Shown: positions 1 through 29,041 of the stretch, one piece after another
Numbering within the stretch: position 1 is the first letter of the stretch
Layout: each line of letters starts with the position of its first letter
Origin: a virus
Reading direction: 5' to 3' (one strand)
Virus record (IMG/VR): IMGVR_UViG_3300045988_100074
Span: 1-29,041 of that record
DNA length: 29,041 nucleotides
Made by a program: the position numbers and the translations under genes
Notes under the pieces: model-generated
What the model was told of the DNA's origin: nothing
Databases searched by the model: none
What the model saw: only the letters and a program-made list of their open reading frames with translations

Positions 1-1986
1 ATTTAAATAACCAGTATAAAGAATCCAGCTTGAAGTTATAGTATTTAAATACTTATTCCTTGCAAATTCTTGAGATGTATTTAATACCTTACGAGTATAT
101 GTTTCAGATTTAATCTCATCATTCTTTTTAACATTACCCTCAACAAGTAATGAATCCCATCCTCCTGCTGAATTAGTATAATATAACACATAATCTTTAC
201 CTGTGGTATCTATATCATATCTAATCTGTCTATCACTAATATTTCCGTCTTCTACAAATCCTACTATTAAATAGCTCCCACAAGGCCATAGTTTATTGCT
301 TAAATCTTCTGTATATGTATATCCATTAATTCCAGAATTTAAACTAATATCTATAGCAGTTGATGTTCCATCTATATAAAAGAATCTATTAACAACTCCC
401 GTTCCAGTTGGTAAAATTCAACTTGCTACTAAATATTGTCTTGGATCAACTAAACCAGTAATAGGATCACTTAACATAGTGCCTTTAGTCAAATCTCTAT
501 CTTTATAACTCCAATCATTGAAAAAAGTAATTGGTTTCTCATTTCCAGATGAAGTTATTAATGTAAATGGTTTCAAATATTCTGGAGATACTATTGTTTT
601 TGAAGTATTAAATATAATCCCATTAGATATATAATTTTCAGCAACATTATTTAATAAAAACTCTACTCTATCAGTTTCTGGATATTTATAAGCTTTTCCA
701 GCATAGACCATATCCCCTGCATAATCTAAATGATATTCAATAAAATCAGAACTGATAATTTCTTCCCAAACATAATCTTTCCAAATAGGAGATATATCAG
801 ATTTAACAGATTGTGTAATATTAATAGATAAATTAATAATACTTGAACTATTCTTTATAACAGATACTCCAATAGTTGCTTGTCTAGAAGATAAACCTGA
901 ATTTTCTGCAATGTTCAAACTAATAGTTGCTACACCTTGAGAATTCACAGTTATCTTCTGTCCACTAATCCAACCTACAGGAATGCTAAATACAACATCA
1001 TCTAAGTTGTTTGAGCCTGTACCAGTTATATTTAATGTAGATGCAGTCCAACTTACTTCATAATTAGTATTAGGAATCACCAAAGACGTTGCAGCTTGTT
1101 TAATTGGAACTGTAGCTTCAAGATTATAACCTCCAGAAGTTGTTGCAGTAACCATTGCACTAAACTCCAAATTATTAGTAGTTTTATTCTCTGGAACAGT
1201 TAATACAAAATAGTTATCAACACTATCCTTTTTAATATTACTAGCTTGTGGACAGGTAACATTAAATGAAGTAATAGTTTCTTCTGTTTTAGTTGTACTT
1301 AAATGAAATTCTTCAGTAACAAAAGCAGCTGCTCCATAAGTTCCAGAAGAAGGAGTTACTACTAACTTTAAATCTTCAGGAGTATTACTCTTTTCAATCT
1401 TAAAGCCATAACTATAACTAATAAATTTATTAGTATCATAATAAGCCCCTAATTGGATAGTTGCAGTTAAATCAGTATTTCATTGAGTATTAGCTCTTAC
1501 TGTAACTTTAAACTTAATAGAGCAAGAATCTCAATCCAGAACTTCCATATTAACTAAAGCTGTAGCATTAACAACTGCTGCATCTCATTTAATAATATCT
1601 GATCTATTTAATATATACTCTACTGTATATTCTCCACCAGTATTTGGTACTTTAATGGTGCCATTAGCAGGATAATATCCAGGAGCTTTACTATGTAAAT
1701 TAATTGGTAAATCTTCCTCTAATAAAGCAGTAGTAATGCCTCTAGGATAAAAATGAAATACAGTAGAAGAATCAGTAGTTATTGTTGTAGGAGATAAAAA
1801 TTGTATTGTACATCCTTCTTTACTTGGATCCTGTATAGTTACATTTAAAGGCCCTTCTTCAGTATAATCATCTCCCCAAGTCCAATAATCATATTCTCCA
1901 GTAATTCCCCATCCAGGATTATTCCATTTAACAGGAAAACTCCTTGATGCATTATATATTCCTAATTTACTTGGTATAAATGCCAT
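1..1986 (-). CDS. Large virion structural protein (tail/baseplate-like); C-terminus runs off the window; read with TGA=Trp
   Basis: ATG at 1984-1986. Track ORFs 1585..1986 and 418..1170 share one frame. I checked every in-frame triplet from 1 to 1986 and found no TAA/TAG and four TGA (418, 1480, 1531, 1585). Composition is beta-rich (Ser/Thr/Asn). The segment ending ...ISLNIAENSGLSSRQATIGVSV weakly resembles Ig-like/BACON-type domains. Confidence 0.75.
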
Positions 1987-1988
1987 TT

Positions 1989-2477
1989 TTAAAAGTTTTT
2001 AAATAAATAATAATCTACTTGTCCTTGTAAGTCTTTAGTTATAGCATCATCAAGAAGTTCCATATAGTTGTTCTCTATATATTCTAGAGTATTAGCAAGT
2101 GGATGTTTTCCTTGAGTTCCTTGAAGATGTATCTTTCTTCCAATTAAATATGCAAGTTGATCTACAGTAGGTAACTTGCCATTATAAGGTCTTGGAATTA
2201 CTGGCTTAGTTTTAATCCAACTCTTTATATCAGATAATGGAGGAAATTTACCAGCAGCTCTGCCTTCTTCAACATATTCTCAATAATCTAATAAGCTAAA
2301 ATTAACCTCATATTCTCCATCTTGAGTCTCAACTATATAGTTTAAACTATTACCTAATGCTCCAGTGTCCTCAGATCTGGTTTTAACTAATTCCTGTCTA
2401 TAAAGAGAAATTATAAGATCTCCTCACTTCCTTAATAGCTCACTTAAATTTGAGAACTTTAATTCTTGAATATTCAT
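1989..2477 (-). CDS. Putative head-tail connector / tail-completion protein (HK97 gp10-like), 162 aa
   Basis: ATG 2475-2477, TAA 1989-1991, all triplets checked. Two in-frame TGA (2280, 2424) hide it from the standard-code track. Motifs EDTGALGNSL and DYWEYVEEG resemble the gp10-type signature (recalled, not searched). Confidence 0.5.
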
Positions 2478-2517
2478 TTTTGTTAAAATATATTATTTTA
2501 TATATTAGTAGCTAATG

Positions 2518-2544
2518 AAAATAGGGAGGTTTACTCCCTATTTT
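2518..2544 (-). terminator. Rho-independent terminator-like hairpin
   Basis: AAAATAGGGAG / GTTTA / CTCCCTATTTT. The minus-strand reading is followed by TTTTCATT. It lies between two minus-strand gene blocks. Confidence 0.55.
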
Positions 2545-2547
2545 ATA

Positions 2548-2916: not shown

Positions 2917-3383
2917 AAAAAAAACATTATGTCTGAAAATATATCTATTGTTAGATGGGTATTTAAGAATTCTGCCTCATCAATAGGGTCATAATCTTCT
3001 CCATACTTCTTTCCATTAGGTAGTAAGAAACAAGCTGCCAGATTAGGCATAAAATCATCATACTGCTTATAAAAATTCTGAAAGTCAATATATTGACTGG
3101 CCGTCATCTTATTAACATTAAAAAAGACTTTATATTCTTTATTACCAATATTATAAGTAGTTTCTGGGGTTTTTGGCTTATATGGAGTCTCTATAAATTT
3201 AAGATTATTTATAAACTCTTGTAGCTTGTTTACTTCCATATTAGTTATATCTTCTATAGGTATATCACTAAGTACAGATACCATAGCTAAATTCATATCT
3301 AATTCATTTTCCCAGTCTTTTCGTATTATCTCAAACAGTCTTTTATAATGAGATAAATCCATTTCATTCCAATTCTTTATCAT
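2742..3383 (-). CDS. Hypothetical protein (zero-frame product, 213 aa) downstream of terL
   Basis: Track ORF. ATG 3381-3383 overlaps the terL stop by 1 nt. TAG stop at 2742. The last ~60 aa are Arg/Lys-rich and look like an out-of-frame reading of an acidic stretch. Confidence 0.6.
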   Translation of the reverse strand: MIKNWNEMDLSHYKRLFEIIRKDWENELDMNLAMVSVLSDIPIEDITNMEVNKLQEFINNLKFIETPYKPKTPETTYNIGNKEYKVFFNVNKMTASQYIDFQNFYKQYDDFMPNLAACFLLPNGKKYGEDYDPIDEAEFLNTHLTIDIFSDIMFFFVNLLQVSTLSTLHSSEREMKKRLRKTRDKLERRKLLKSLIQTRRLILLLKNEAELSE

Positions 3384-4630
3384 TATTTAATTGCAATATT
3401 ATAAGTTCCTTTATTTGTATTTAAAGCATCATAAGCTAACATTAAAGATATACAAGTATCATCATTAAATCCAGATGGAGCATTATATGATACATTTCCA
3501 GTTTTTGGATTATATGAAGCTTCATATAGTCTTAATTCATTTAATAGTTTATCATCCTTTAAAATACCAATCTTTTCGTTTTCTAATGCAGCTTGTAGCT
3601 TATTTACAATAGCTGCTTTAGACTTATTAGTAGTTAAAAACTTAACTATCCGTAATTTAGGATTCCTTTTTACAAGAATATCATAAAACACTGAACCTAT
3701 TGAGTTTTGTTCAACTTGAACTATCTTTATAAATCCCTGATACTCAGTGAATATATTTGTCAGTAAATCAACTTGTTCTGTTGGAGTTTTGTCGTTAAAA
3801 TACTTTATAAAGACCATCTGCCCATTTTCATTTAAAGCTGTAATACAAGTATAGTCTTTACCAGAACCAGTAGCCCAGTCAACTCCAATATAGAGATTAT
3901 GATATTCAGGTTTTTTATCAATTATACAGTTAGCTATATTATTAAATAGGCAACCATCATCATCTGCAAACTCTCCAAGATATTCAGTTCTAAATTTATT
4001 TTTGGAGGTTGTAAGGCGATACATTTCAAGTTTATCCTCACTTAACAGCATAGAAGTATCTTCTAATGCTCAATCAAAGGATTGATAATATTTACTAAAA
4101 TTACCATCAAAGCCCTTTTTAAAGCATTCATAAAAGAATCCTTCTCTAAACCTTGGAGTACTAATTATAAGTATTGGAGCATTTCATACATCAGCTATAG
4201 GTGTTAAAATTTCGTATACTTCATCTGATATATAAGCTGCTTCGTCAATTACTAATATTCCACTAACTGTAAATCCTCGTAATGAATCTTTTTGCTCAGC
4301 AGATTTAAATAGTATTTCACTCCCATTAGTAAATTCAATCTCAAGCAAAGATTCATTCTTTTTCTTAATAATATCTGTGCCATCTAATGCCTTCACTAAC
4401 TCTTTAAATATCTTTCTGGAGTTAGTAAGAGTTGGTTCAACAATACAGCTAATACTTCCAGGATAGTTAATTGAAAATCGTAATAGTTCATTTTCTGCCA
4501 TAAAGGATTTACCACATTGTCTCTTTGCTTTTACAGTAAATATTTTTCCAGACCTATAAGAGTGCTCTAAAGCAGTATGTACCTTTAATTGATAGATAAA
4601 TGGGCTATATCCTTTATATATTTTTGTCAT
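3383..4630 (-). CDS. terL: Terminase large subunit
   Basis: Track ORFs 4184..4666 and 3383..4051 are in the same frame. The gap 4052-4183 was checked and is open, with TGA at 4070 and 4184. Walker A KRQCGKS, Walker B ILVIDEAAY, IISTP motif, then an RNaseH-like nuclease half (IGVDWATGSGKDYTCI, NDDTCIS). Start taken at ATG 4628-4630; ATG 4664-4666 is also possible. Confidence 0.85.
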
Positions 4631-5057
4631 TGTTAATTGGATCTCCAAATTTAAACTGGACTTCATTATTCTGAATAGCTACAATAGTCTCAGGTTGATT
4701 TAATCCAAACATACTATTTATAGTCTTAATAATCTCATTTGCAGCTCTAATATCTCCCTTACTAATAGCAGTATCCAGTAATGATTCCAATCTTGATAAT
4801 TGTATATGTCTAAGATTTTTTATAAGGTTATCATTCTTTTCAGCAATTATCTTATAAGCTTCTCCAATATATCTTGCAGCCGTTGATTGGCTTACATTAT
4901 ATTTACTTTGAAGTTCTTCACTTACTTTATTCCTTGACCATCCTTTGTTAAATAACCTTGCAGCATAAAGATATTTAGTCTTTACTTCGTCTATTTGTTC
5001 CTTTTCTACCTCTGCCTTTTTCGGTCTCCCTACTTTCTTCTTTATTTGCTCCTTCAT
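4614..5057 (-). CDS. terS: Terminase small subunit (putative)
   Basis: Lies immediately upstream of terL and overlaps it by 17 nt. Basic N-terminus GRPKK plus an HTH-like stretch WSRNKVSEELQSKYNVSQSTAARYI. First ATG at 5055-5057; the track start at 5063 is TTG. Confidence 0.6.
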   Translation of the reverse strand: MKEQIKKKVGRPKKAEVEKEQIDEVKTKYLYAARLFNKGWSRNKVSEELQSKYNVSQSTAARYIGEAYKIIAEKNDNLIKNLRHIQLSRLESLLDTAISKGDIRAANEIIKTINSMFGLNQPETIVAIQNNEVQFKFGDPINNDKNI

Positions 5058-5329: not shown

Positions 5330-5656
5330 TTAATCCAAGTATTTATAAACTATATCTATTAGTTTGGTAATCATATCTTTAATTAGAATCATACAATCCT
5401 TTATAACTGGAGTCATAAATGCGATTAAAGCAATATATGCAATCATTAAGAAGCTTAATTGTCCAGTTACTAAGATATATAGTAAACTTGCCCACCAAGT
5501 ACAGCATAGAGAACATCCAAATAAAGGTATAGACCAATCAGTGTATTTAACTCCAGGATATAGTTTACTTCATACCCATCTATTTGCCTTGTCCATAGCT
5601 CCAGATAAATCAATACAGAAGACAAGAATAATAGCTATAAAAAGTATGCTTAACAT
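5330..5656 (-). CDS. Small integral membrane protein, 108 aa
   Basis: ATG 5654-5656, TAA 5330-5332, all triplets checked, one in-frame TGA (5570). Has hydrophobic segments and a CSLCCTWW motif. It replaces the antisense track ORF 5364..5678. Confidence 0.6.
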
Positions 5657-5895
5657 AACCTCTCTCTTATTTGTTTAATAAATCTCTGAATAGTCGTATG
5701 ACTAATTCCCAGAATCTTCCCAACTTCTCTATAACTTCGATATTCAGCATATAAGATAATTATGGTCTTATCTGCTCTATTTAATGCCTCTCATTTCGGA
5801 TAAATTGCAAGTAATCTATCATCCATCTCTGTAAAGGTATCTATTTCAAAGTTATACTCAATTAATAAATCATCAATATTAATCTTCTGCTTCAT
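5650..5895 (-). CDS. Sigma-70 region 4-like HTH protein, 81 aa (C-terminal half of an ECF-like sigma)
   Basis: ATG 5893-5895, TAA 5650-5652, one in-frame TGA (5791). The stretch ADKTIIILYAEYRSYREVGKILGISHTTIQRFIKQIRERL matches the region 4.2 pattern. Confidence 0.55.
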
Positions 5896-6187
5896 TTAAC
5901 CAATCCTCTAAATTATCCGTTTGTTGTTCTAATGGCTCTTTAAATATTTCATAGTACTTTTTATATTGGTAATAGTATCTACTATTCTTAGAAAACCAAT
6001 TATTCTTAAATACTCTTGTAATCCAATACTTCAGCTCATTCTTACTATCTAATGACTGAAGCTTGGAATTAGATGTTTCCAGAAGTGCGATACATACCAT
6101 TTGTGTGCAATCATCATCTGCACCAAATTTTTCTTTTAACTCCATAATAAATGGATAGTATTTTTCTATTATTTCATTGTTATTCAT
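5879..6187 (-). CDS. Sigma-70 region 2-like protein, 102 aa (N-terminal half of an ECF-like sigma)
   Basis: Track ORF. DDDCTQMVCIALLE...ELKYWITRVFKNNWFSKNSRY fits the ECF region 2 pattern (D-QE..., WL--IA-N---D--R). Confidence 0.5.
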   Translation of the reverse strand: MNNNEIIEKYYPFIMELKEKFGADDDCTQMVCIALLETSNSKLQSLDSKNELKYWITRVFKNNWFSKNSRYYYQYKKYYEIFKEPLEQQTDNLEDWLNEAED

Positions 6188-6671
6188 ATTCCCAAATAAA
6201 TCCTCCAGCTGTTTTTCGCTGACCTTTAAGAACCTTTACAATGTTTCTGGATTGTATATTAAGCTCCCGTTCAGCATCTATTGCGGAATCTCATCTCTTA
6301 ATAAAACTTCTATCTAAGGATAGCTGTTTAATTGCTTTCTTATGAGAAATTCCCATTTTAATGTTATGACTGCCATAATTATTGTTATACTCATAAGTAC
6401 AGTACTCTAAATTATCTAAGTTATTATTTAGCTTATTTTCGTCCTTATGATTAATACATAAGTCATTTTTACCTATGAAAACTTCTGCCATTAGTCTATG
6501 TAATAGGTATTTCTTTGGCCCAAACGGATTATATAAAGTAACATAATAGTATCCACTATTTTGAAGTTGAGGTTTGATATTTTTCGGAACTGAGGTTCTA
6601 GTACTCAAGACCGAACCGTCAGTTCCTATTAAATAGTTTTCATATCCAGGTATTGCCTTATATGTCGTCAT
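6180..6671 (-). CDS. HNH homing endonuclease (NUMOD4-like N-terminus, HNH core, C-terminal HTH)
   Basis: IPGYENYLIGTDGSV, LHRLMAEVFIG, INHKDENKLNNNLDNLEY. In-frame TGA at 6291, then DSAIDAERELNIQSRNIVKVLKGQRKTAGGFIWEYE and TAA at 6180-6182. Confidence 0.8.
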
Positions 6672-7095
6672 TTCTTATATAATTACTAAAAGTTGTGCCT
6701 ATTTCTAATTTAATTGCTTTCTTTAAAGATAACTCTGTTTTTAAAGAGTATTTATATTCTCCTCCAAAATCAGTTGTACTTCTTCCATATTTCATTGAAT
6801 CTTTAATAAAAGCTCTTTTTACATCTTTATAAATATAAACTCCATCATCAAATATAATGACTAATATAGAGTTACATTTACTAAGTATATCAAACTTATC
6901 CCTATTTATAATTGTAGTTGGATATTTATCTGATTTAAATCTTCTCCTTTTAACTTCAATTATATAGTCTATATTATTCCAAGTAAATGTTCCATCATAT
7001 CTGGAATAATCGTCTTTACATCATTCTATTTCTATATTATATTTATCTTTAAATAGATTCTTTATAAAGACTAAACTTCTTATATCTGTTTTCAT
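6658..7095 (-). CDS. PD-(D/E)xK-like nuclease (putative), 145 aa
   Basis: ATG 7093-7095, TAA 6658-6660, all triplets checked, one TGA (7021). Absent from the standard-code track. Contains SRYDGTF...DYIIEVKRR, a D...ExK arrangement. Confidence 0.45.
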
Positions 7096-7565: not shown

Positions 7566-7585
7566 ATAGTACAAATATACAACAA
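7566..7585. repeat. Left arm of a 20-bp perfect inverted repeat
   Basis: ATAGTACAAATATACAACAA is the exact reverse complement of 7759-7778. It embeds the -7 box of the leftward promoter. Confidence 0.9.
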
Positions 7586-7603
7586 AAAATTCATATTTCC
7601 AAA
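7572..7603 (-). promoter_or_regulatory. Bacteroidota-type promoter, leftward
   Basis: The minus strand reads TTTG, then a 20-nt spacer, then TATATTTG (consensus -33 TTTG / -7 TAnnTTTG). Confidence 0.6.
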
Positions 7604-7660
7604 TATTTTATGCATTTTTTCAAAAAAATATTACTATTTGTATTTTTTAGTGCTAAAAAT

Positions 7661-7691
7661 TTTGTAGATTAAAAAATTATTCTTATATTTG
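7661..7691 (+). promoter_or_regulatory. Bacteroidota-type promoter, rightward (distal)
   Basis: TTTG (7661-7664), 19-nt spacer, TATATTTG (7684-7691). Confidence 0.5.
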
Positions 7692-7740
7692 TAGTGTGAT
7701 AATAAAAATACAATTTTAAATAAAAATAATGCTTAAATTA

Positions 7741-7772
7741 TTTGGAGATTGAGAAAAATTGTTGTATATTTG
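7741..7772 (+). promoter_or_regulatory. Bacteroidota-type promoter, rightward (proximal)
   Basis: TTTG (7741-7744), 20-nt spacer, TATATTTG (7765-7772). Confidence 0.6.
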
Positions 7773-7930: not shown

Positions 7931-9649
7931 ATGAAAACTTATTTAAATAATTTAATCAATGAATTACCTACTAACTGCTTATTTGACAAAGGTAAAGTAG
8001 GATGTGGTGGAACTTCAATGGCTTTAGAGTGTGATAAGCCTTATGTTATATGTGTTCCATTTGTAAGCTTAGTTGAGAATAAACTTGCTCAATATCCTAA
8101 TGAAAGACGTAAAGAGCCTATTTTTGGAGTTTATCAAGGTATTACTAAGACAGACATTGAAGCTTATGTATCTTCAGTTAAATGCCCTAAAATCATTGTT
8201 ACTTATAATTCTCTTTATAAAGTAATAGAAGCAGTAAATCCTAAAGATTATAGCTTATTAATTGATGAATATCATATACTATTTAATCAATATAGTCTTA
8301 GAAGAGATGCAATTAAAGATGTATTAAAGACATATAGTCTATTTAAAGAATATACATTTATGACTGCAACTCCATTAGAAGATGAATTTGTTTTAGATGA
8401 ATTGTCTAAACTGCCATTAGTAAAACAAGAATGGGATGATGTTATTGAGACTAAAGTTCAGACTGTTAAATGCAAGAATGTAGAAGCTTCCACAATTAAG
8501 CTTATAAATGGATTTTTAAGTGGGAATGTTGAAGGTAATGCTTATATATTTGTTAACTCTGTTGACTTTATAAAGAATCTTATTTTAAAGGCTAAACTTA
8601 CAGCAGATAACACAAGAGTAGTATATTCTAAGAATAATAGAACTAAACTGCCAATTCAGAATTCTTCAGTAAATGATGAACCTAAGAAGATTAATTTGTT
8701 GACTTCTACTGTATTTGAAGGTTCTGATATTTATGATGAAAATGGAAGAATTATTGTAGTTAGTGATTCCTCTAAAGCTCAGACTCTTTTAGATATATCT
8801 ACTTCAATTCAACAGATTGCTGGTAGAATTAGAAATAGTAAATATTTAAATTGGATTACTCATCTTTATTCAGCCACAAGATATGCAGAGATAGATTATG
8901 ATACATTTAAAAATAATACATTAAAGAATATTGAAGAAACAAAGATTGCAGTTGAATCATATAATCAGCTTCCAGAAGTAGCTCGTAAGAAGATTACAGA
9001 CTTTACAAGTGACACATATATTCAAATTAATGAGGATTATACCTTTGAATTTGACCCAAATATGGCTAAAGTAGATATATTCAATTTTAAGGTTGCAAGA
9101 GGTTTATACTCTGTAAGAGTTAATCTTACTAATGAATATCTAAAGAATGGCTTTATAAAGGTTGCTGAATGTGAAGATAAATCTATTAAGATAGACCTTG
9201 AAGCTCCTAGTAAGTCATTTCAGGAGCTTATTAAAGATGTAAGAGCTGAATGGGAAACTAAATTTAAAGTTGGAACTCCTATATTAAATGAAGCTCTAAT
9301 TAAATATCCTTGGTTAAATGATGCAATTAATAAACTGGGATTTGAAAGAATGGCAACTTTGGGTTATTGCATTAAAGATATTAAAGAGGAGCTTGTTAAA
9401 ATATCAGATAAAAATATGCCAAATAAGGTTGCCAAATTACTTACAAGAGATATTCAGAATGGTATGTTCTACAGTTTAGCTTTATTAAAGAATAAGATTG
9501 CTGATGTATATAAGACTTTAGGTATAAAGAAAACTGCAAAGGCAACAGATATTGAACACTATTTTGAAGTTAGAAAATCAACTAAAACTGAAAAGGATGT
9601 TAGAAGCAAAGGATACATTATTATTAGACCAAGATTCATATTTAAATAG
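7931..9649 (+). CDS. SF2 (DExH-type) helicase, 572 aa
   Basis: Track ORF. Walker A GKVGCGGTS, motif II LLIDEYH, motif III MTATP, motif VI QIAGRIRN. No in-frame TGA; all Trp are TGG. TAG stop. Confidence 0.7.
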   Translation: MKTYLNNLINELPTNCLFDKGKVGCGGTSMALECDKPYVICVPFVSLVENKLAQYPNERRKEPIFGVYQGITKTDIEAYVSSVKCPKIIVTYNSLYKVIEAVNPKDYSLLIDEYHILFNQYSLRRDAIKDVLKTYSLFKEYTFMTATPLEDEFVLDELSKLPLVKQEWDDVIETKVQTVKCKNVEASTIKLINGFLSGNVEGNAYIFVNSVDFIKNLILKAKLTADNTRVVYSKNNRTKLPIQNSSVNDEPKKINLLTSTVFEGSDIYDENGRIIVVSDSSKAQTLLDISTSIQQIAGRIRNSKYLNWITHLYSATRYAEIDYDTFKNNTLKNIEETKIAVESYNQLPEVARKKITDFTSDTYIQINEDYTFEFDPNMAKVDIFNFKVARGLYSVRVNLTNEYLKNGFIKVAECEDKSIKIDLEAPSKSFQELIKDVRAEWETKFKVGTPILNEALIKYPWLNDAINKLGFERMATLGYCIKDIKEELVKISDKNMPNKVAKLLTRDIQNGMFYSLALLKNKIADVYKTLGIKKTAKATDIEHYFEVRKSTKTEKDVRSKGYIIIRPRFIFK

Positions 9650-9809
9650 AATTGCGGATATTAAAGAAACTCTTAAAAAGTCAGAAGATACTATTAAGGA
9701 GTTTGATAAGTGAATGAATGAATTTAAAGAGAATTCTAAGAAATTAGGAGATATTATAGATAGAGTATTAGCACAAAGAGATTTTACATTTATTTCAAAA
9801 TTTGATTAA
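9597..9809 (+). CDS. Small hypothetical protein, 70 aa
   Basis: ATG 9597-9599 overlaps the helicase 3' end. One in-frame TGA (9711). TAA at 9807-9809. A coiled-coil-like acidic/basic sequence. Confidence 0.4.
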
Positions 9810-20733: not shown

Positions 20734-20734
20734 A

Positions 20735-20956
20735 TTATTTATTTTTATAAGATTCCTCTTGTTCTTTTAAATATCTTTCATTTGTTTCTGCATCAATAAC
20801 CCTATAAATAGATATATCAAAGGTTAAAGGGCAATATAAAATAGTTGATGCACTATACTCTTTAATATCATCACCTTCTTTATATGAGGTAATAAAATAT
20901 CCTTCATCAGAGTATAACTTTATAAATATGCTAGTTTCAATATGTAAATGTTCCAT
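20735..20956 (-). CDS. Small conserved partner protein, 73 aa (paralog of 16940..17176)
   Basis: Track ORF. Its ATG overlaps the upstream stop by 1 nt. Confidence 0.6.
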   Translation of the reverse strand: MEHLHIETSIFIKLYSDEGYFITSYKEGDDIKEYSASTILYCPLTFDISIYRVIDAETNERYLKEQEESYKNK

Positions 20957-22143
20957 TATGCTAATATCCAGTTTTTATTAGTAGCTATTGCTTTCTGTTC
21001 ATCTGATAATTTTGCCAGATTGGTAGCTCCTAATGTTAAAGTTTTGCTATTCTCCCCTGTTAAATCAACTAATGCATTAATAACAGACATTAAAGAATCA
21101 GTAGTAAGATTGGTACTTGCTGATAGATATAATCCTGCTCTAAGCTCACCGTTTACTGTAAGATTAGTAATTCCACCACATTTTGAAAATATAGGATTTA
21201 TTGAACTTTCTTGAGATGTGTATGATGGAATGTTTAATGTTACATCTGTTAATCTAATGCAATCTCCAAACATATTAGTAGTAGTTACTAATTTAGGAGC
21301 GTCTAAATTAAGTGTTTTCAGGCTATTATATCCAGATAAGGTACCTCTGCTAAACATATTAGACCCATCTGTTAATTCAGGCATTGGAATAGTGAATGAT
21401 GTTAAATCAGCACATTCTGTAAACATATATCTGCCATCTTCTAATTTAGGCAATTGCATAGTGAACTCCTTAATTTTTGATCTTTGACATTTATATCTTC
21501 CATCAACTAAATTTTCTCAACCTACAACATTTGCAGGAACAGATGTTCCCGTAAACCTATATAAATTAACTACAGCTTGTGTAATATCATAGGTATTCAT
21601 TGGATTCGTAACATTAACAGTTACATCAATAAACTCCATATAATCATATCCATCTGCAGGATGAATCATTGTAGTTCCATTCTCTGTAATAGTAACTTCT
21701 CTATGCTCCTCAACTGGAATCTCTACATCTACTTCAATACTTGATAAACCTTGATAGCCAGCATCAGGTTTAACTTCAGTCATTGATAGGTTTTTATCTA
21801 TTGTTATATGTTTCTCTTGTAAAGTAGGAGTTGGTACTGGAACATTTATTTGTGCAGAAACCTTCTCCATAACATCATAATCTGGATCAGGTAAAATATC
21901 TATTAATCCATTAGATGTAATTGTAATCTCTTTAGTAGCTTGTACTGTAGGAACAACAACATCAACAGATACATTTACTTTCGACATACCATCATAACCC
22001 TCATCTGGAGTTACAACGAACTCAGCATTCTGAGTATATTCTACAGACTTCTCCTGTAATTTACATTCTTGAGCAGCTAAAGCTTCAATATCTCTTGAAG
22101 TTGTATTCTTTGCTACTTCTGGTGTTGTATATTTAATAACCAT
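20956..22143 (-). CDS. LRR-type putative receptor-binding / tail protein 1, 395 aa, with N-terminal tandem repeats
   Basis: Track ORFs 21517..22143 and 20956..21459 share a frame and 21460-21516 is open. One TGA at 21517. The LRR-like unit continues across the junction (LVDGRYKCQ...LEDGRYMFTECADL...LTDGSNMF...TTNMFGDCIRL). Confidence 0.75.
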
Positions 22144-22789: not shown

Positions 22790-23692
22790 TTAGGCTTTGG
22801 CACCAAGAACTACCTCATCAGGGAATGCAACCTGTACGCCAGCGTTAAATTCAATAGCTAATCTAAATTCGCGGAAATCTTGTGAATACCACAATTCAAA
22901 CTTCTCTTCATCGTTCATCATATCGCAACCATAGAAGAAGTTCTTATCTAACTGACCAGCAACAATCTTATCAGTTCCATTAAGACCATTAACAGCGATT
23001 ACTTTAACCTGCGAACCAGGAAGCATAATCTCACCGTTAAGATTCTCACCACTATAGTGGTAGTAGTTCTTAGCAACTAACTCCTGGATAAATTTACGGA
23101 AAGTATCACTACCAACTAAGATAGAAGCACCATCCAGAACCTTCTCAGGAATAGCGTTATAAACTGCCATAATGTCATCATAAGCAGATGCACCAGTAAT
23201 TACTACATCAACTGTACCTTCAGCAGCACCAAGGATCTTTAACAGACCATCAAAGTACTTCAGGTTATTTGTTTCAGAAGCAGTATCACCCTGCCAAATA
23301 GCAGTCTCAATAGCAGCCTTAACGTTCTCAACTACTGCATTTACGAAATCCTCTTCAAAAGGAAGCGTCTTCTGACCAGCAGCTACTCGTACTTGATACT
23401 GAGTCCAGTATTTAAGCATCTCTTTATCACAATATGCCATATTGATCTTAATATTACCAGTAGCCAGAATTCTCTGAGAAAGAGTCTGAGTTCCAGCTTC
23501 ATCCCAACCACAAGCTAGGCCATCGCCAAACTGAATAGCAGTTGATAACAGGTTAAGAGCAGCACTAGTTTTGATGTCAGTTTGAAGATTGAACAACGAA
23601 GCACTCTTAGCCTTTAATACAGCCTCTTTTATCAATGGAAGCCTGCGCTGTTCTACGTAACTAGTTAAACTCGTCATTACGGGGTTTGCCAT
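22790..23692 (-). CDS. Major capsid protein (HK97-fold type, putative), 300 aa
   Basis: Track ORF. Follows the protease and scaffold genes. Its size, composition and GC-richer codon usage are typical of a highly expressed gene. All Trp are TGG. Confidence 0.7.
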   Translation of the reverse strand: MANPVMTSLTSYVEQRRLPLIKEAVLKAKSASLFNLQTDIKTSAALNLLSTAIQFGDGLACGWDEAGTQTLSQRILATGNIKINMAYCDKEMLKYWTQYQVRVAAGQKTLPFEEDFVNAVVENVKAAIETAIWQGDTASETNNLKYFDGLLKILGAAEGTVDVVITGASAYDDIMAVYNAIPEKVLDGASILVGSDTFRKFIQELVAKNYYHYSGENLNGEIMLPGSQVKVIAVNGLNGTDKIVAGQLDKNFFYGCDMMNDEEKFELWYSQDFREFRLAIEFNAGVQVAFPDEVVLGAKA

Positions 23693-23706: not shown

Positions 23707-24345
23707 TTAATTGTTATACTTAAATATTTTACCTTTATGCTGTTTATATTTTCCGTTTAATACTCTAAGAATAGAGCTTTTACAGTATCCATCTAAAACA
23801 GCATTTTTAATTGAAGGATAAGTTTTAATTATATTTCCTTCTAAATCTAGCATAATGATTGATTTAGTACCTTTATTTATATGAGATTCAGACATCCTTT
23901 TTCTTGTCTCTGAAGTAAACTCTCTATTTATAGCTATATTTTTAAGTCTTTCTGTAGTTTCAGCATTATATACTCCCGTTTTGTGTTTATTTCAGGGATT
24001 ACGACCTTTGCAAGATTCTGATATTTTAATAGCTATTTCTGGAGTCATTCCTCCATAACCTCCTGGTTTAAGATTTAAACATCTCTTATCGGTGTTATAA
24101 CAATCGCCTATAATATCAGCTTCTCTTAAAGCATTATCTTTTGAAGAATCATTAAATTCAATTATAACTTTTCTGTAAGTAACATCTTTAATCTTGCCAT
24201 ATTTACTATAGTAATTAGTAAGAATAGTGCCACTTCCTGCATAGCTATTATTAAATGGATCTTCATCAGTACTATGCTTGCCTATATAGTAAGTGTTTTC
24301 CCATCCAGGCATTAAAGGCTGAATTTCATAAATATAATGGTACAT
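23707..24345 (-). CDS. GIY-YIG-type homing endonuclease (HE3)
   Basis: Track ORFs 23992..24345 and 23707..23895 share a frame and 23896-23991 was checked open. One TGA at 23992 in GRNP-[TGA]-NKH, which matches the PWNKG motif of HE2. HYIYEI...YYIGKH, LREADIIG, NLKPGGYGG, NUMOD3-like SETRKRMSESH, C-terminal HTH-like tail. Confidence 0.75.
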
Positions 24346-25561: not shown

Positions 25562-26155
25562 TTAATGTTTAACTCTTTTTATCTTCTTAATCATATTAAG
25601 GATCTCTTTTATTTCGTCATATTCATCAGACTTTCTCTCTAAAGTAAATAAACCTTCAATTGAGAACCCTTTAAACTTACCAGCTTTAATTGCATCTCAA
25701 ATAACTTGATTATCTACTTTATAAGTGGCAAATAAAGAACCATCAGGAACATCCTGGAATTCAACTGGAGATATTCCTCTATTAATATCCTTTACATAGA
25801 TTTCTTGTAGAGTAATTCCATTTAAATCAGAATCTTCTAAATGTTCAATATTTACATCTGTAGTTCTCTTATCATACAGCATCTTCTCTGCCATTTTACG
25901 AAGAGTTTCCTTATCATACTGTATGTAGTATTCTCCGAGTTTCTCATCTCGTCTGAAAATTGGAGTATCACTTAACATTAAGCAAGATGTTACTAAATGC
26001 TTATCTTCATCCATCGAGAACTTCTGAGAATTACTAAAAGCAACCCAGTTAACTTGTGTAGCTGGTTTGCTTGTTAAAGCAACATATTCTATTCCATCAC
26101 AATCATCAGTAATCACTGCCTGAAATAATGGAAGATCATTATAAGTAATTTCCAT
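25562..26155 (-). CDS. Prohead protease-like protein (XkdF / S78_2-like), 197 aa
   Basis: Track ORF 25697..26155 extended through TGA 25697 (...NQVI-W-DAIKAGKFKGFSIEGLF...) to TAA 25562-25564. The YVALTSKPA and GFSIEG motifs resemble XkdF-type proteins (recalled). Confidence 0.5.
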
Positions 26156-26207
26156 TTTTATTAATATATAGCACTTTATAAATTTGTAATATTTTTAGAA
26201 TATCTAA

Positions 26208-26257
26208 TGTAACCTTTTTACTCATATTTTGTAGTTAATAAGAATAAAAAAGTTACA
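26208..26257 (+). repeat. 50-bp inverted-repeat element, copy C
   Basis: Left arm TGTAACCTTTTTA, loop CTCATATTTTGTAGTTAATAAGAA, right arm TAAAAAAGTTACA. Lies between the tape-measure-like gene stop and the protease start. Confidence 0.8.
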
Positions 26258-26267
26258 CTAAATATTT

Positions 26268-28940
26268 TTAGAATGAAGCATTAGATTCAGTAACTGCTAC
26301 CTTAGTTTGAGCTGAAGTAATATCAGATTCAACAACATAACACTTAACAGGTTCATTTAAAAGGTCAGTTTCTTTATCTCCAAGTAAGTTTCGAGTATAT
26401 TCTACAGGAGCAGTATTTAAAGCAGCAGGTGCTGCAATAGATGCAGAAGCAGAAGATGCAGATGCTCCACTAGTTTCGTCTACTTCCCAGATCTTTTTAA
26501 CATTAGCTATACCAGCTGCAATTGCTGCAGCAGCGGCGGCAGCACCTAAAGCTGGACCTACAACTGGAATACCAGCCATTGCAGAATAAGCACTGTTAGC
26601 TGCACTATATGTATCAATTAAAGCTTGAGCTGTTGCGAATCCTTTACCTACTTTACTTTCCTCTCCTCATATAGTTGCCATACTTCCTGCAACCTTTGAT
26701 GCTAGATCAAGGCGAGCTTTTATAGATTCTTGATATTGCTTATTAACATTTTCTCTAACTTTGTTTTTCTTATTTTCTCTGTCTATTTCATTTTCAGTTA
26801 ATTGCTCATCAATAGAATCTAATTCTAGTTTAATAAGTTTTCTCTGATCAGCTGTTAAAGTCTCATTTTCTAATTGTTTTAATAGAAAAGACTTCTGCTC
26901 CTCCAATCTTGTTTTTATTTGATTATGATATTTATCTATAGAACCTTCTTCAGTATCTGTTCCTAATAAACGATCTTTATATCCCTCTATGTCTTTTTTG
27001 CTTGAATAAGAGAACTCACCACTTAATCCAAATATTTTGGCAAATCCTTGTGTATATTGAGTTTTAGGAATTTCTAAAGATGTATCTTTTATATCATACC
27101 TTGCCTCGCGCATTCTTTTTAACTCAGTCTGCAGATCATCTCAAGCTTTATCCGCAGCACTTTTTCTTGCATTTTCTTCATCTTCTCTAGCTTTATCTCT
27201 AATTTTCTTCAGCTCTTCTTGATGCCAAGCCTCAACTTCTTCAATACTTCTATTATTTTTAATAGCTAGTGCTAATAGTCTAATATATTCATCTTCAAGT
27301 TCATCTACTGGGTCTTTATCCTCTAATCTCTTTTGAAGCCATTCATCAAATTCATTTATTACCTTCTTAGCTTCAGTAGTGTTCTTTGTAATAGTTGGAA
27401 TATTAAAGAACCCACCATACTTTTTATTAGTATCTGCTACATCCTCAAATAGCTTTTTAATCCTTTTCTCAATGTCTTTATTTAAATCATCCAACTGTTT
27501 ATAAGTATTCTCTTTATTTTGCTTTGTATACTCATAAATTGTATTTGAATAATCTTTTCAGAACATTGCTGTAGCTTTAAAAGCCTGCCAAGCAGATGCC
27601 TCTCCAAAGCTTGTATCAGAAATTTGATTCTCCAGTTCAGTACGTTTATTTAAATACTCCTCATAAAGCTTAATTGCAGCCTGTTCAATAGCCTGAGCTT
27701 TTGCTCTTGCAGTTAATGCTTCTACATAATTACCAGTATTATTTACAAACGCATCTTCTGCAGTCTTTACATTAGTAATATTTAAACCAGTCTCTTTAAT
27801 CTTATCGGAATATTGCTCTATAAACTTACGCTTAGCATCTGCAGAATCTCCAACCCTTTCGTAAGCTATTTGTAACTCTCTAAAGATAGCTATAGATTTA
27901 GAAGCAATCTGATTAGTAGTATCTGTAATAGACTTTCTAAATTCAGCAGCCTCCTTTTCAGCTGATTTTATTGAGGATATATACTCTATTATCTTATTAA
28001 TAGCTACTCCAATAGCTGTAGCTAATGCAATTCATACAGTTACATTACCAATAGTTTTAAGTGCAGTTTTAACTTTACCTACTCCAGAAGCTAATTCTGC
28101 AGCACCTTTAGCAGCTGCATTAGATGCTTCAGCTTGTTTATTAAGAACTGCAGCTATCCCAGGAGAATTTCTTTTTAGTCTTTCTAATTGTTCATTGGTT
28201 ACAGCTATACTATTACGAGCTTCTTTAGTACTATCATTTAATTTACCTATAATCGGAATCGTATTAGATACACTCTTATTAGTAGCAGATATTTCAGCAG
28301 GAGTGCCCATTACTCCTTGAATCATACCTCCTTTAAAATTAATATTGGTGCCTTCTAAATCCTTGACTACTTTAGAGATATTACCTAATTCAGTTCCAAC
28401 ATTACCAACAGATGTGCCAATGCCATTAAGCTTAGATGCATCAATCTGATTAAGATTTTTGGCAGCATTATTCAACCCTGTATTAAATGGAGAGATAAAA
28501 TCAGTTAATTTCTTAAACCAATTACCTAAAGTAGGCAATTCTTCAAGTAAATCTTTTATACCTCCAATACCTTGTACTAATGCAATAGATGACTGTAACT
28601 TAACCATTACTTTAGTTAAATCTTCAGATTCTTTCCCAAATAAAGTAATGGCAGCTGTTGCAGCACCATATCCACTAGCTAAGCCAGTGGATATTTTAGC
28701 TACACTTTCAAATCTTTGAGCAGTAGTTCTCGAAGATCTTGCTATCTGCTCATTAATCTTATTGAATTCTGATTGTCTCTTACCAAGTAATGCAAGAGTT
28801 TCATTATATTCCTTAGTACCAATCTCTAAATCATTCAGAGAACTAGATAATGCGTCAATATCTTTCTTTAAAGAGTTTATTGACTTATTACTTGACTTAG
28901 TATCAATACTAATAACCTTTTTAATTTCTGTTTGTGCCAT
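26268..28940 (-). CDS. Tape-measure-like protein (or internal/ejection protein), 890 aa
   Basis: Four track ORFs (28032..28940, 27141..27494, 26667..27113, 26268..26579) are all in one frame. The gaps were checked open, with TGA at 28032, 27558, 27141 and 26667. Long helical/coiled-coil sequence plus a Gly/Ala-rich hydrophobic segment GIPVVGPALGAAAAAAAIAAGIANV. Confidence 0.6.
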
Positions 28941-29041
28941 TAGATTGTAATATTTTTAACAGTATCTTCTGTTAGTGTTAAATTCTCTGTATATTTAACT
29001 GTTCCTGTAGGTCCATCAGTCACTTCAAATTTAAACTGAAC
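28940..29041 (-). CDS. 3' end of an upstream gene (partial)
   Basis: Open frame from the window edge, ending ...TEDTVKNITI with TAA 28940-28942. The stop overlaps the next ATG by 1 nt. Confidence 0.5.
   Translation of the reverse strand, partial: VQFKFEVTDGPTGTVKYTENLTLTEDTVKNITI

Follow-up and report, generated by a model that had tools for sequence, protein, structure and literature searches.

Phages of the gut in which TGA has been recoded from stop to tryptophan have already been published. For bacteria themselves, surveys report code 4 only in the Mycoplasmatales, a few endosymbionts and some genera of the Eggerthellaceae, to which the gTranslate preprint adds some Minisyncoccia; no lineage of the Bacteroidota is listed (10.64898/2025.12.01.691617; 10.64898/2026.05.24.727570). 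The stretch of DNA analyzed here (the window, 29,041 nt) represents 29 kb, or approximately 89%, of a JGI parent contig of 32,678 nt (~32.7 kb) from human gut metagenomes. The gene calls listed for this contig already read through the TGAs. The sequence (GC 30.6%) belongs to a tailed phage in which integration is apparently absent, and the genomes of its relatives measure 28.5–33.6 kb and are circularly permuted. Our overall reading, to which we assign a probability of roughly 65%, is that this human-gut tailed phage translates UGA as Trp in a Bacteroidota host that we infer to use the standard code.

An independent ORF scan with TAA and TAG as the sole stops returned the same 32 in-frame TGA coordinates as the initial annotation. 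They fall in 19 ORFs, of which g14 lies on the plus strand and the other 18 on the minus strand. The 35 complete ORFs end in TAA (32) or TAG (3); the absence of genes ending in TGA, noted earlier, follows from the way the ORFs were defined and carries no independent weight. Reading the window with translation table 4 gave 36 genes covering 93.5% of the sequence (mean 254 aa), whereas table 11 broke the same genes into 48 fragments with a mean of 159 aa and a coverage of 78.3%. Long-ORF coverage rose from 0.831 to 0.929 upon TGA read-through, and to 0.839 in a control with TAG read-through. Several Pfam domains run across TGA-encoded residues (X), namely Terminase_6N (residues 49–243, over X161 and X199), GIY-YIG (1–80, over X28 and X40) and Peptidase_S78_2 (48–168, over X153). 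When relatives are compared, the 30 codons past the TGAs show an excess of variable sites at third codon positions (243/211/451 over the three positions), as do the codons upstream (257/223/434), which supports persisting purifying selection on the predicted frame downstream of the TGAs. Dozens of independent assemblies retain these TGAs or have TGG in their place. Coverage, domain spans and third-position variation thus confirm that TGA is read as sense across the whole element. We conclude that at least 19 genes are translated with UGA as Trp (genetic code 4), including those for the terminase, endolysin, membrane and lysis-region proteins, a sigma-factor fragment, tail proteins, the prohead protease and homing endonucleases.

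The assignment to Trp, proposed initially from paralog alignments, is strongly supported by the interchange of TGA and TGG, by Trp columns in standard-code homologs and by the frame-specific purifying selection. The window genes contain 72 TGG and 32 TGA codons. In ten close relatives, all 46 changes at window TGAs were to TGG; over 58 related loci, 179 of 215 changes at TGAs were to TGG and 283 of 350 changes at TGGs were to TGA. In standard-code relatives the TGA columns hold W in 80 of 406 cells against a background of 1.8% (11x), and G in 5 of 406 against a background of 6.5%. Code 25 (TGA as Gly) is excluded.

At the left end of the window, on the minus strand, g01 (1..1986; TGAs 418, 1480, 1531, and 1585) encodes a large virion/tail protein truncated by the window start. 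Its relatives carry TGA/TGG at ratios of 26/9 (418), 23/16 (1480) and 16/21 (1531), and all have TGA at 1585. The adjacent g02 (1989..2477, minus strand; TGAs 2280 and 2424) encodes a virion-module protein of 162 aa, for which standard-code homologs have W at X66 (27/32) and Y at X18 (19/27). The large terminase g04 (3383..4666, minus strand; TGAs 4070, X199, and 4184, X161) consists of Terminase_6N and Terminase_6C (260–393) domains. The two TGAs do not separate the ATPase and nuclease halves, as had been suggested, since both X161 and X199 lie within the ATPase domain. Both columns are W in 44/44 close homologs, X199 being F or W in distant ones, and position 4184 is TGG in 37/47 relatives; under code 11 the terminase of relatives is called as two pieces of 186–198 aa and 213–222 aa.

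Further along the same strand, g07 (5330..5656; TGA 5570) encodes a small multi-pass membrane protein, by inference holin-like, with W at X29 in 10/26 standard-code homologs; clade-wide, TGA makes up 54% of its Trp codons. The product of g08 (5650..5895, minus strand) is a sigma-70 region 4/HTH protein (Pfam HTH_50, Sigma70_r4_2) with TGA 5791, a position at which 37 relatives have TGA and 4 have TGG. Together with g09 (5879–6187), a sigma-70 ECF N-terminal part (TIGR02937 match), it resembles a phage sigma factor divided between two genes. An HNH homing endonuclease is encoded by g10 (6180..6671, minus strand; Pfam HNH_3, NUMOD4, I-HmuI_NUMOD-like; TGA 6291, with 8 TGA and 14 TGG in relatives), and a 145-aa protein without assigned function by g11 (6658..7095, minus strand; TGA 7021, present in 37/37 relatives).

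The right-hand genes, likewise on the minus strand, include three homing endonuclease-type paralogs in which W and X occur at matching places: g15 (GIY-YIG, 10125..10715; TGAs 10137, 10596, and 10632), g20 (GIY-YIG/NUMOD3, 13074..13706; Pfam NUMOD3; TGAs 13527 and 13590) and the NUMOD-type g32 (23707..24345; TGA 23992), whose Pfam I-HmuI_NUMOD-like match is weak (E = 1.2e-3, 18.8 bits, under the 27-bit cut-off). The translations do contain the paralog contexts quoted initially: KYG-W-DNFEH of g15 pairs with KYS-X-DGFEH of g20, and TP-W-NKG of g20 aligns with NP-X-NKH of g32. The C-terminal I-X-KYA of g15 in turn parallels I-W-EYE of g10. The endolysin g16 (10708..11157; TGA 10774, X128; Pfam Peptidase_M15_3) is an M15 zinc peptidase that needs read-through, as had been argued; its H-x6-D motif lies upstream of the TGA, and X128 corresponds to the W of W-[VI]-H in 4/4 standard-code homologs. 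Upstream of it, g17 (11317..11973; TGA 11371) encodes a membrane-anchored protein with TGA at 11371 in 36/36 relatives, while three other Trp positions switch between TGG and TGA.

Of the tail proteins, g23 (15296..16282; TGAs 15314, 15464, and 16055) and g26 (17178..18299; TGA 18084) are of the receptor-binding type, and g29 (20956..22143; TGA 21517, X215) has a weak BspA-type LRR match at residues 237–332, downstream of X215 (Pfam LRR_5, E = 6e-4, 20.2 bits, under the 27.7-bit gathering score). The C-terminal SKN-X-TLA of g23 aligns with NKN-W-ILA of g29 and SKN-W-SIN of g26, contexts that were likewise recovered in the translations. Relatives carry TGA/TGG at 12/4 for position 15314 and 4/1 for 21517, and TGA in 2/2 of those covering 18084. 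In the 810-aa tail fibre g27 (18301..20733; TGA 20251, retained in 10/10 relatives), the Phage_tail_C domain is found at the C-terminus, past the TGA. The prohead protease g35 (25562..26155; TGA 25697) has W at X153 in 13/15 standard-code homologs, with TGA and TGG in 11 relatives each. The coiled-coil virion protein g36 (26268..28940; 890 aa, with a hydrophobic segment) is tape-measure-like or ejection-protein-like; TGA/TGG ratios in relatives are 14/11 (26667), 6/16 (27141), 17/5 (27558) and 14/7 (28032).

TGA usage is not neutral across genes. The portal gene g21 (13672..14763, minus strand; Pfam Phage_portal) contains 5 TGG and no TGA, and the major capsid gene g31 (22790..23692, minus strand; PHROG 11320, 1623, 10) contains 4 TGG and no TGA; across relatives the Trp codons of g31 are TGA in 0/44 cases, and TGA is depleted in g21 and its neighbours, strongly so in g21 itself. 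Depletion of TGA in early genes (Mann-Whitney, p = 0.003) and in head and portal genes (p = 2e-5), and of T at position +4 after TGA (2/32 vs 16/72 in the window; 12/101 vs 29/129 in the clade, Fisher p = 0.04), are modest in effect size and drawn from related, non-independent sequences.

The SF2 (DExH) helicase gene g13 (7931..9649, plus strand), probably an early replication gene, is written wholly in the standard code, with 4 TGG codons and TGA absent; its Trp codons across clade relatives are TGG throughout (TGA in 0/111). Its AlphaFold model (pLDDT 81) matches DEAD-box helicases, RecQ, PriA and the HSV-1 origin-binding protein in Foldseek. The divergent early promoter region (7572..7772) contains three Bacteroidetes-type matches (TTTG-N18-22-TAnnTTTG) at 7572–7603 (minus), 7661–7691 (plus) and 7741–7772 (plus), each directed toward its own operon. 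The whole window has 4 such matches (1.41 expected); 3 correctly oriented matches in this 200-nt region compare to ~0.02 expected, their placement is identical in relatives L002, L005, L092 and L093, and sigma-70-type matches in the region are fewer than chance. Like g13, g12 and most small early-region ORFs are free of TGA. The exception is g14 (9597..9809, plus strand; 70 aa), in the same rightward operon and overlapping the end of g13, with TGA at 9711 in 31/31 relatives; relatives at 76–87% nucleotide identity share the ORF, its stop codon and a 12-nt deletion that keeps the frame, and its third-position bias is weak. With host-type promoters and mostly TGA-free ORFs, the early region would be expressible under the host code.

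A tRNA with anticodon UCA, which the initial annotation had proposed to look for, is present neither in the window nor in ~70 clade loci (ARAGORN, Rfam). With ARAGORN, the window yielded no tRNA at all and the clade loci a single one, a tRNA-Ser(GCU) in L093, but no suppressor; Rfam searches at E up to 5, ARAGORN with relaxed thresholds on intergenic DNA and inspection of orthologous positions in relatives likewise returned none. The host tRNA-Trp (CCA) is a natural near-cognate for UGA. The most economical mechanism would be that release factor 2 of the infected cell is neutralised and tRNA-Trp reads UGA, the neutralisation step being purely conjectural; searches of Pfam, PHROGs and NCBIfam gave no candidate protein for it. 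Alternatively, a UGA-reading tRNA may be provided in trans. Most non-early genes would be completed only once UGA decoding is in place, and slow or late decoding would account for the avoidance of TGA in the genes for the helicase, capsid and portal proteins, as well as in +4 U (strong-termination) contexts.

A host that natively decodes UGA (code 4) would also fit the absence of a suppressor tRNA. It would suit as well the presence of TGA in 53–80% of genes, including the sigma-factor fragment and early-operon g14, and the up to 13 in-frame TGAs in single ORFs of relatives. The majority of TGG codons, used initially to argue for a recoded phage, is a weak argument, as TGA accounts for 47–69% of Trp codons in deeper clade members. 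The conclusion itself is probably right on other evidence: specific genes avoid TGA, no Bacteroidota are among the known code-4 bacteria, and several features point to a Bacteroidota host. The phage encodes an M15 peptidoglycan peptidase, its early promoters are of the Bacteroidetes type, and SD-like motifs precede 6–9% of genes, versus 42–46% in Firmicutes control loci. Distant standard-code relatives with 38% TerL identity and homologs of g02, g03, g06, g07, and g35 lie in Bacteroides sp. contigs of 189 kb and 587 kb, and the Hymenobacter sp. J193 chromosome carries a g13 homolog (46% identity). Other bins point elsewhere: MAGs of Acutalibacteraceae, Clostridia or Azospirillum CAG:239 contain some of the standard-code relatives, and those loci lack SD motifs too. 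For the clade, whose contigs are all ≤50 kb, no CRISPR spacer match or integrated copy was found. Taken together, the host is probably a peptidoglycan-walled, standard-code member of the Bacteroidota.

The phage sits within a monophyletic low-GC human-gut clade (TerL identity ≥58%, GC 27–31%), all sampled members of which read TGA as sense, with in-frame TGA in every sampled locus. Relatives at TerL identity ≤51% use the standard code, and in-frame TGA occurs in none of them except L019, L127, L141 and L151 (1–2 TGA cells each). The lower the GC content, the higher the TGA fraction; low-GC standard-code relatives use TAA almost exclusively as stop codon, and distant standard-code relatives seldom use TGA, even for stop. 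With a host that probably uses the standard code, the phage would count as alternatively coded as Borges et al. use the term. Compared to known gut phages with TGA recoded to Trp, its unusual feature is that a suppressor tRNA is absent from both the phage and its relatives.

The window has a GC content of 30.6% and carries nearly all of its genes on the minus strand. An ORF scan that accepted only TAA and TAG as stop codons resolved it into 36 tiled genes (g01–g36) and recovered exactly the 32 in-frame TGA positions in 19 genes that had been read as sense codons in the initial annotation. The comparison of coding density between the standard code 11 and code 4 (TGA as Trp) that was suggested there showed a gain from 78.3% coverage of the window (48 fragments, TGA as stop) to 93.5% (36 genes, TGA as sense codon). 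In a control, reading through TAG raised the long-ORF coverage from 0.831 to only 0.839, versus 0.929 when TGA was read through. The complete genes end in TAA (32) or TAG (3); the earlier statement that none ends in TGA is true, but it follows from the definition of the ORFs and is no independent evidence.

Several Pfam domains run across the TGA codons. The Terminase_6N domain (residues 49–243) includes both TGAs of the large terminase TerL (g04), the GIY-YIG domain of the homing-endonuclease-type protein g15 includes both of its N-terminal TGAs, and the Peptidase S78_2 domain of the protease g35 includes the TGA of that gene. The TerL codons had been placed between the ATPase and nuclease halves; code-11 gene callers do split the gene into N- and C-terminal pieces in relatives, but both TGAs are located inside the ATPase domain. 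In a set of 44 related loci, the 30 codons past each TGA have variable sites distributed over the three codon positions as 243/211/451, and the codons before the TGAs as 257/223/434. As the third-position enrichment is the same on both sides, selection on the reading frame persists past the TGAs. Identical TGAs were seen again in dozens of independent assemblies, and protein lengths agree with those of homologs only under read-through. Under code 11, gene calling breaks 19 of the 36 genes of the phage, those for the terminase, the endolysin and tail proteins among them. Public assemblies of relatives are annotated unevenly, some with code 4 and some fragmented, and the JGI gene calls of the parent contig already span TGAs (products of 890, 810, and 395 aa).

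The residue encoded by TGA was identified from codon exchange between relatives and from alignment columns of homologs. In ten close relatives (80–99% nucleotide identity), all 46 changes at a window TGA were to TGG, and a window TGG was replaced by TGA 42 times. Across 58 loci, 179 of the 215 changes at window TGAs were to TGG and 283 of the 350 changes at window TGGs were to TGA, the remainder being mostly TAT. In the TGA columns of standard-code relatives, W occupies 80 of 406 cells (background 1.8%, an 11-fold enrichment) and W, F, and Y together account for 48%. Conserved W motifs are filled by TGA: in the M15 endolysin (g16) the TGA column corresponds to the W of the W-[VI]-H motif in 4/4 standard-code homologs, and the residues at the in-frame TGA of g02 (X66) and of the protease (X153) are W in 27/32 and 13/15 homologs, respectively. 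The assignment to Trp in the initial annotation is therefore upheld by the TGA/TGG interchange and the homolog columns; the paralog contexts it cited were all found in our translations. Sequence searches of the PDB said little about the TGA columns, with X161 of TerL falling on an R three residues from a W in the alignment to P74-26 TerL, and the PDB M15 match ending before X128; metagenomic and standard-code homolog alignments were used instead. At the level of sequence, TGA as Trp (code 4) is confirmed, and four independent lines (domain spans, selection, interchange, and homolog columns) concur that TGA is translated as Trp.

Two other readings of TGA were weighed against this evidence. TGA would encode Gly (code 25) in a phage of Absconditabacteria or Gracilibacteria; code-25 phages exist in human microbiomes (10.1101/2021.08.26.457843), and a locus from Gracilibacteria (L066) likewise has few Shine-Dalgarno (SD) motifs. 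However, the window TGAs swap with TGG and not with GGN, the GGA codon accounting for 5 of the 215 changes, every one at a single homing-endonuclease site; Gly is below background in the TGA columns (5/406 cells versus 6.5%), and TGA occupies conserved W motifs, which leaves this reading extremely improbable. Hardly any weight can be given to the alternative that the TGAs are true stops, arising from pseudogenes, assembly errors or split genes, or passed by rare programmed read-through or selenocysteine insertion. Public annotations of relatives do still call some code-11 fragments as separate genes. Against this stand the recurrence of the same TGAs in independent assemblies, the purifying selection on the downstream frame, the domains and conserved motifs that run across the TGAs, and the homolog lengths reached only with read-through. 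Moreover, 32 sites in 19 genes are far beyond programmed read-through or selenocysteine usage, TGG substitutes freely, and the homolog columns hold W, F or Y, with C in only 1 of 406 cells. On these sequence grounds we consider code 25, pseudogenes, assembly error and selenocysteine excluded.

Gene families were assigned by Pfam, PHROGs, and NCBIfam. These identify, besides the large terminase (g04), the portal protein (g21), an S78-type prohead protease (g35), the major capsid protein (g31) and a tail fibre (g27). Three paralogous receptor-binding-type proteins (g23, g26, and g29) share a C-terminal tail (...TxEQKxxAxxKNW...) and have the small paralogs g25 and g28 between them. The tail region at 15296–22143 (minus strand) is the least conserved among relatives, as expected of a host-range cassette. 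The endolysin g16 is an M15 zinc peptidase (M15_3) with intact H-x6-D and W-V-H motifs and is conserved in the clade of low-GC code-4 relatives (~70 loci). There are five homing-endonuclease-type genes, g10 (HNH) and g15, g20, g32, and g34 (GIY-YIG/NUMOD), located at 6180–6671, 10125–10715, 13074–13706, 23707–24345, and 24949–25551 between core genes; their presence varies between relatives and their TGA fractions are the highest, 46–78%.

A sigma-70/ECF-like factor is encoded in two pieces, g09 matching the N-terminal part of ECF sigma-70 factors and g08 matching region 4 (window 5650–6187, minus strand). With a 17-nt overlap and different reading frames, the pair could be a sigma factor split in two or a case of programmed frameshifting. 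About 90% of relatives have TGA at the only Trp position of g08. The sole large plus-strand gene, g13, had no sequence-family match in Pfam, PHROGs or NCBIfam, but its AlphaFold model (pLDDT 81) matches SF2 helicases, such as DEAD-box proteins, RecQ, PriA, and the HSV-1 origin-binding protein; from this model we take it to be an early replication helicase. The only plus-strand gene with a TGA (9711) is g14 (9597–9809), which overlaps the TGA-free helicase gene at the latter's end. The variable sites of g14 show no bias towards third positions, but in translated alignments of diverged relatives (76–87% identity) the ORF, an in-frame 12-nt deletion and the stop codon are kept, and despite initial doubt we retained it as probably a real gene. 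Its TGA is invariant in 31/31 relatives, and the product would be a 38 aa peptide under the host code and a 70 aa protein under code 4, which could constitute a code-dependent product switch in the early operon.

Repeated elements were also observed between genes. A palindromic element of 60–67 nt, TGTAACTTTTTT ... ATATTT(T)G ... AAAAAAGTTACA, is present in three intergenic copies (2540–2606, 7838–7904, and 26199–26257; 78–88% match) just upstream of the operon starts g02, g13, and g35, and may be a phage-specific promoter, operator or RNA hairpin. Similar GC-rich hairpins, AATAGGAGGG...CCCTCCTATT, at 10088–10124 and 2514–2550, follow convergent or operon-end positions and look like intrinsic terminators.

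The window is part of JGI contig Ga0168703_1000496 (32,678 nt). Relatives are contigs of 28.5–33.6 kb from many human gut metagenomes, which are mutually circularly permuted and were never found in contigs larger than 50 kb, suggesting complete, non-integrated phage genomes. The clade is widespread and diverse; samples rich in the phage include ERR9187146, ERR1137310 and JGI 3300029303. All loci with a TerL identity of at least 58% have a GC content of 27–31% and in-frame TGAs; the TGA fraction in the clade tracks GC, and deeper members write 47% (L092) and 69% (L096) of their Trp codons as TGA, a single ORF having as many as 13. At TerL identities of 51% or lower, no in-frame TGA was found in homologous genes, with the exception of four loci (L019, L127, L141, and L151; 1–2 TGA cells each). 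Low-GC standard-code relatives stop nearly always at TAA, with 0–3 TGA stops among 14–20 ORFs in L013, L128, L132, L144, and L089. Low GC with near-exclusive TAA stops is the pattern expected from the order proposed by Borges et al., in which low GC is followed by loss of TGA stops and then by reassignment (10.1101/2021.08.26.457843). Two further low-GC loci, L131 and L149 (TerL 45–50% identity), have in-frame TAG in regions homologous to window genes and look TAG-recoded; the wider family may hold members with code 11, code 4 and code 15 (TAG reassigned). A megablast of 25 kb against INPHARED and a capsid tblastn returned nothing among cultured phages, and TerL showed only 25–28% identity to cultured phages, those of Thermus and Halorubrum; there is thus no cultured relative or host to borrow.

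Searches for a decoder of UGA did not recover the tRNA(UCA) predicted in the initial annotation. ARAGORN identified no tRNA gene in the window or in the readable rest of the parent contig, and in the clade relatives, which jointly span the whole circle, only a single tRNA-Ser(GCU); the region equivalent to the last 1.7 kb of the parent contig is fully coding in relatives, without a tRNA. Rfam gave no tRNA at E-values up to 5, and relaxed ARAGORN settings gave none in intergenic DNA. Thresholds of 80–90%, introns and the mitochondrial mode of ARAGORN produced matches only inside coding sequence, among them a mitochondrial-type 'SeC(tca)' at 11539–11602 inside g17 that was treated as a false positive. 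The tRNA-Ser(GCU) is complete, is not a suppressor and was gained by the code-4 locus L093 (TerL 58% identity) in the early intergenic region (6154–6241); the sister contig L092 has an empty site at this position. No domain of a release factor, which the initial annotation had also raised as a possible function, nor of a tRNA synthetase, deaminase or tRNA-modification enzyme, was found by Pfam, PHROGs or NCBIfam. Borges et al. detected a suppressor tRNA in only 35% of code-4 genomes (10.1101/2021.08.26.457843). Given the absence of such machinery in about 65% of published code-4 phage genomes, a phage-encoded tRNA(UCA), RF1 or TrpRS is not strictly required for membership of the code-4 phages.

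Use of TGA is uneven over the genes. Across the clade, none of the 111 Trp codons of g13 and none of the 44 of the capsid gene is TGA, versus 36% clade-wide; g12 is also free of TGA, and the portal gene and its neighbours rarely use it. TerL, g07 (holin-like), g08, g17, the endolysin and the homing endonucleases use it often (gene bias, Mann-Whitney p = 0.003 and 2e-5). This resembles a standard-code early module (g13 and g12, TGA-free clade-wide) next to TGA-rich late and lysis-region genes (TerL, g07, g17, the endolysin, and g08), with the exceptions that the capsid and portal genes of the window are also TGA-free and that g14 of the early operon has an invariant TGA. Besides g12 and g13, the early ORFs without TGA comprise one of 59 aa at 7352–7531 and two, of 44 aa and 46 aa, at 9812–10089. 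In addition, T at the +4 position follows TGA less often than TGG, in 2/32 versus 16/72 cases in the window and 12/101 versus 29/129 in the clade (p = 0.04). A T at +4 is a strong-termination context for RF2, and its depletion after TGA suggests RF2 competition. As the counts derive from related, non-independent sequences, both the uneven gene use and the +4 depletion are only suggestive.

With respect to the host, the data point indirectly to a standard-code member of the Bacteroidota, to which we assign a probability of roughly 0.75. The initial annotation had likewise concluded that this is a recoded phage and not one with a native code-4 host; this is probably right, but on other grounds than those given there. 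SD-like motifs were found in only 6–9% of genes, versus 42–46% in Firmicutes control loci in the same analysis, and few such motifs are the Bacteroidota pattern. The Bacteroidetes promoter TTTG-N18-22-TAnnTTTG occurs four times in the window; three of these copies fall in a 200-nt stretch of the divergent early intergenic region, where ~0.02 are expected by chance, each facing its own operon, and their placement is the same in both sub-clades. Sigma-70-type matches in the early region were below chance. The −7 box TAnnTTTG by itself is not enriched (51 versus 41.8 expected in the window), and information comes only from the composite motif and the way it clusters. Two Bacteroides sp. contigs, of 189 kb and 587 kb, contain distant relatives with five shared genes and 38% TerL identity, and a homolog of g13 is present in a Hymenobacter chromosome. 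Labels of metagenome-assembled genomes containing relatives (Acutalibacteraceae, Clostridia, and Azospirillum CAG:239) were discounted, as they concern short phage-sized contigs that are also without SD motifs.

The phage could instead simply share the code of a native code-4 host, either a gut member of the Mycoplasmatales or an unrecognised walled lineage, without any switch. Consistent with this, no relative encodes a suppressor tRNA, more than half of the window genes contain TGA, including regulatory genes, the deeper members use it for 47–69% of Trp codons, and its fraction follows GC like that of a drifting synonymous codon. Mycoplasmatales, to our knowledge the only code-4 bacteria expected in humans, have no cell wall, and a peptidoglycan hydrolase conserved in the clade argues against such a host. 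So do the Bacteroidetes-type early promoters and the absence of SD sites, the depletion of +4 U after TGA, and the helicase and capsid genes, which avoid TGA completely although TGA and TGG often replace each other in other genes. Outside the Mycoplasmatales, surveys of hundreds of thousands of genomes list code 4 only for a small number of endosymbionts and for certain genera of Eggerthellaceae sampled from zoo mammals; to these the gTranslate preprint adds part of the Minisyncoccia (10.64898/2025.12.01.691617; 10.64898/2026.05.24.727570). Code 4 is not known from any lineage of the Bacteroidota (10.64898/2026.05.24.727570). Known code-4 bacteria are scarce in human gut metagenomes, in which the phage itself is common; sense TGA was found in only 18 of 4,930 human-microbiome species genomes (PMC8153819). 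A native code-4 host is accordingly unlikely. Less likely still is a standard-code host in which a UGA-decoding tRNA is supplied in trans, by a co-resident prophage, a co-infecting recoded phage (for instance a crAss-like phage that recodes TGA) or a tRNA(UCA) specific to the host strain. The window phage has no tRNA of its own, its clade can gain a phage tRNA gene, as L093 illustrates, and other gut phages have suppressor tRNAs, some of them standard-code relatives of recoded phages (10.1101/2021.08.26.457843). Yet nothing in the data points to a helper, the clade is widespread and diverse, and having to rely on co-infection would be costly for a phage with a complete set of genes for the virion, lysis, replication and regulation.

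For a standard-code Bacteroidota host, a decoding scheme can be proposed. UGA Trp codons are present in most operons, and the TGA-free helicase gene is situated behind host-type promoters. The early region would be expressed under the host code, and the genes with TGA (the g08 sigma fragment, terminase, tail proteins, and lysis genes) would be completed only once UGA is decoded; this wait could set the timing of late functions, in line with a proposal of Borges et al. (10.1101/2021.08.26.457843). Our preferred guess is that RF2 would be neutralised and the host tRNA-Trp (CCA) would read UGA, as this would explain the Trp identity, need no tRNA gene and account for the avoidance of TGA in abundant and early proteins. 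Modification or editing of the host tRNA-Trp, or a tRNA(UCA) supplied in trans, would be other options. A candidate decoder or switch protein was not found by Pfam, PHROGs or NCBIfam. We tentatively raise the possibility, though a doubtful one, that an entire clade of small Bacteroidota gut phages decodes UGA as Trp efficiently and genome-wide without any encoded tRNA, which would imply a switch that is protein-based or repurposes a host tRNA. Either a small early phage protein would inactivate RF2, so that tRNA-Trp (CCA) reads UGA by default, or an enzyme would edit or modify the tRNA-Trp anticodon; in both versions the in-frame TGA of g08 would gate late transcription until the switch is done.

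Sharing of a reassigned host code is known from phages of Mycoplasma and Spiroplasma. It also occurs in the code-25 phages of Absconditabacteria (10.1101/2021.08.26.457843; PMC10746230). As in such phages, which need no suppressor tRNA, a large share of the window genes has an in-frame TGA; unlike in the code-25 phages, TGA is Trp and not Gly, and 53% of the genes are recoded versus ~90%. The window phage further differs from host-code-sharing phages in its cell-wall hydrolase, its TGA-free genes and its Bacteroidota promoter and ribosome-binding features. Stop-codon reassignment was described in crAss-like phages by Yutin et al. (PMC7886860), with TAG or TGA reassigned in genome blocks (PMC7886860; Mgcod, 10.1101/2022.06.29.495998). 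These are likewise low-GC gut phages infecting Bacteroidota, with a standard-code early module and late genes that need the reassigned stop. They are unrelated to the window in gene content, TerL and capsid searches of cultured phages having returned nothing close; its genome is three to six times smaller, its TGAs are scattered over most operons instead of one block, and it lacks a suppressor tRNA. A TAG-recoded prophage (L188; ENA ERZ28598220, scaffold_71, 132 kb), with 13 in-frame TAGs in TerL and 3 in the portal gene, adjoins intact code-11 bacterial genes (glutamine synthetase and TerC), and resembles the Garnet type of Borges et al. in size and lifestyle. Its late genes are heavily recoded, and its helicase, homologous to g13 (46% identity), again lacks the recoded codon; unlike the window phage it recodes TAG, has another terminase and capsid type, and carries an integrase (Phage_int_SAM_5).

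TGA-to-Trp recoding in gut phages is already known. Borges et al. reported it in diverse clades, namely Agate, Jade, and Sapphire and code-4 members of the small Garnet, Amethyst, and Topaz clades, including clades of 22–34 kb and clades that mix codes 11, 15, and 4 (10.1101/2021.08.26.457843). Gulyaeva et al. predicted code 4 for 6 of 1,899 vOTUs (PMC9610469), and proteomic validation of recoding so far concerns TAG-to-Gln only (PMC9523058). In common with the code-4 phages of Borges et al., TGA of the window aligns with Trp, GC is low and TAA is the favoured stop, the code changes between closely related clades, the recoded codon is frequent in lysis-region genes, and the predicted hosts are standard-code Bacteroidetes or Firmicutes. 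The genome size is also like that of the 22–34 kb clades. The well-described code-4 clades, in contrast, have genomes of 127–200 kb, often with tRNA(UCA), RF1 or TrpRS, versus ~32.7 kb here, and the ~70 clade loci have neither a translation gene nor, apart from the tRNA-Ser(GCU), any tRNA. The capsid and portal genes of the window avoid TGA, whereas structural genes are reported as recoded by Borges et al. The clade is thus set apart by its small genome, by capsid, portal and helicase genes that avoid TGA, and by the lack, throughout its members, of a suppressor tRNA or translation gene. For annotation, the harm done to this phage by standard-code gene calling is a practical reason to recognise code 4. 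In about two-thirds of code-4 phages no suppressor tRNA can be detected, and Borges et al. raised the question of how these switch UGA (10.1101/2021.08.26.457843); the gene-by-gene TGA pattern and the +4 context bias are testable signatures of RF2 competition. Being a compact and abundant ~30 kb example with many near-identical variants and no suppressor tRNA or translation-factor gene, the clade offers a clean system for how tRNA-less code-4 phages change the meaning of UGA.
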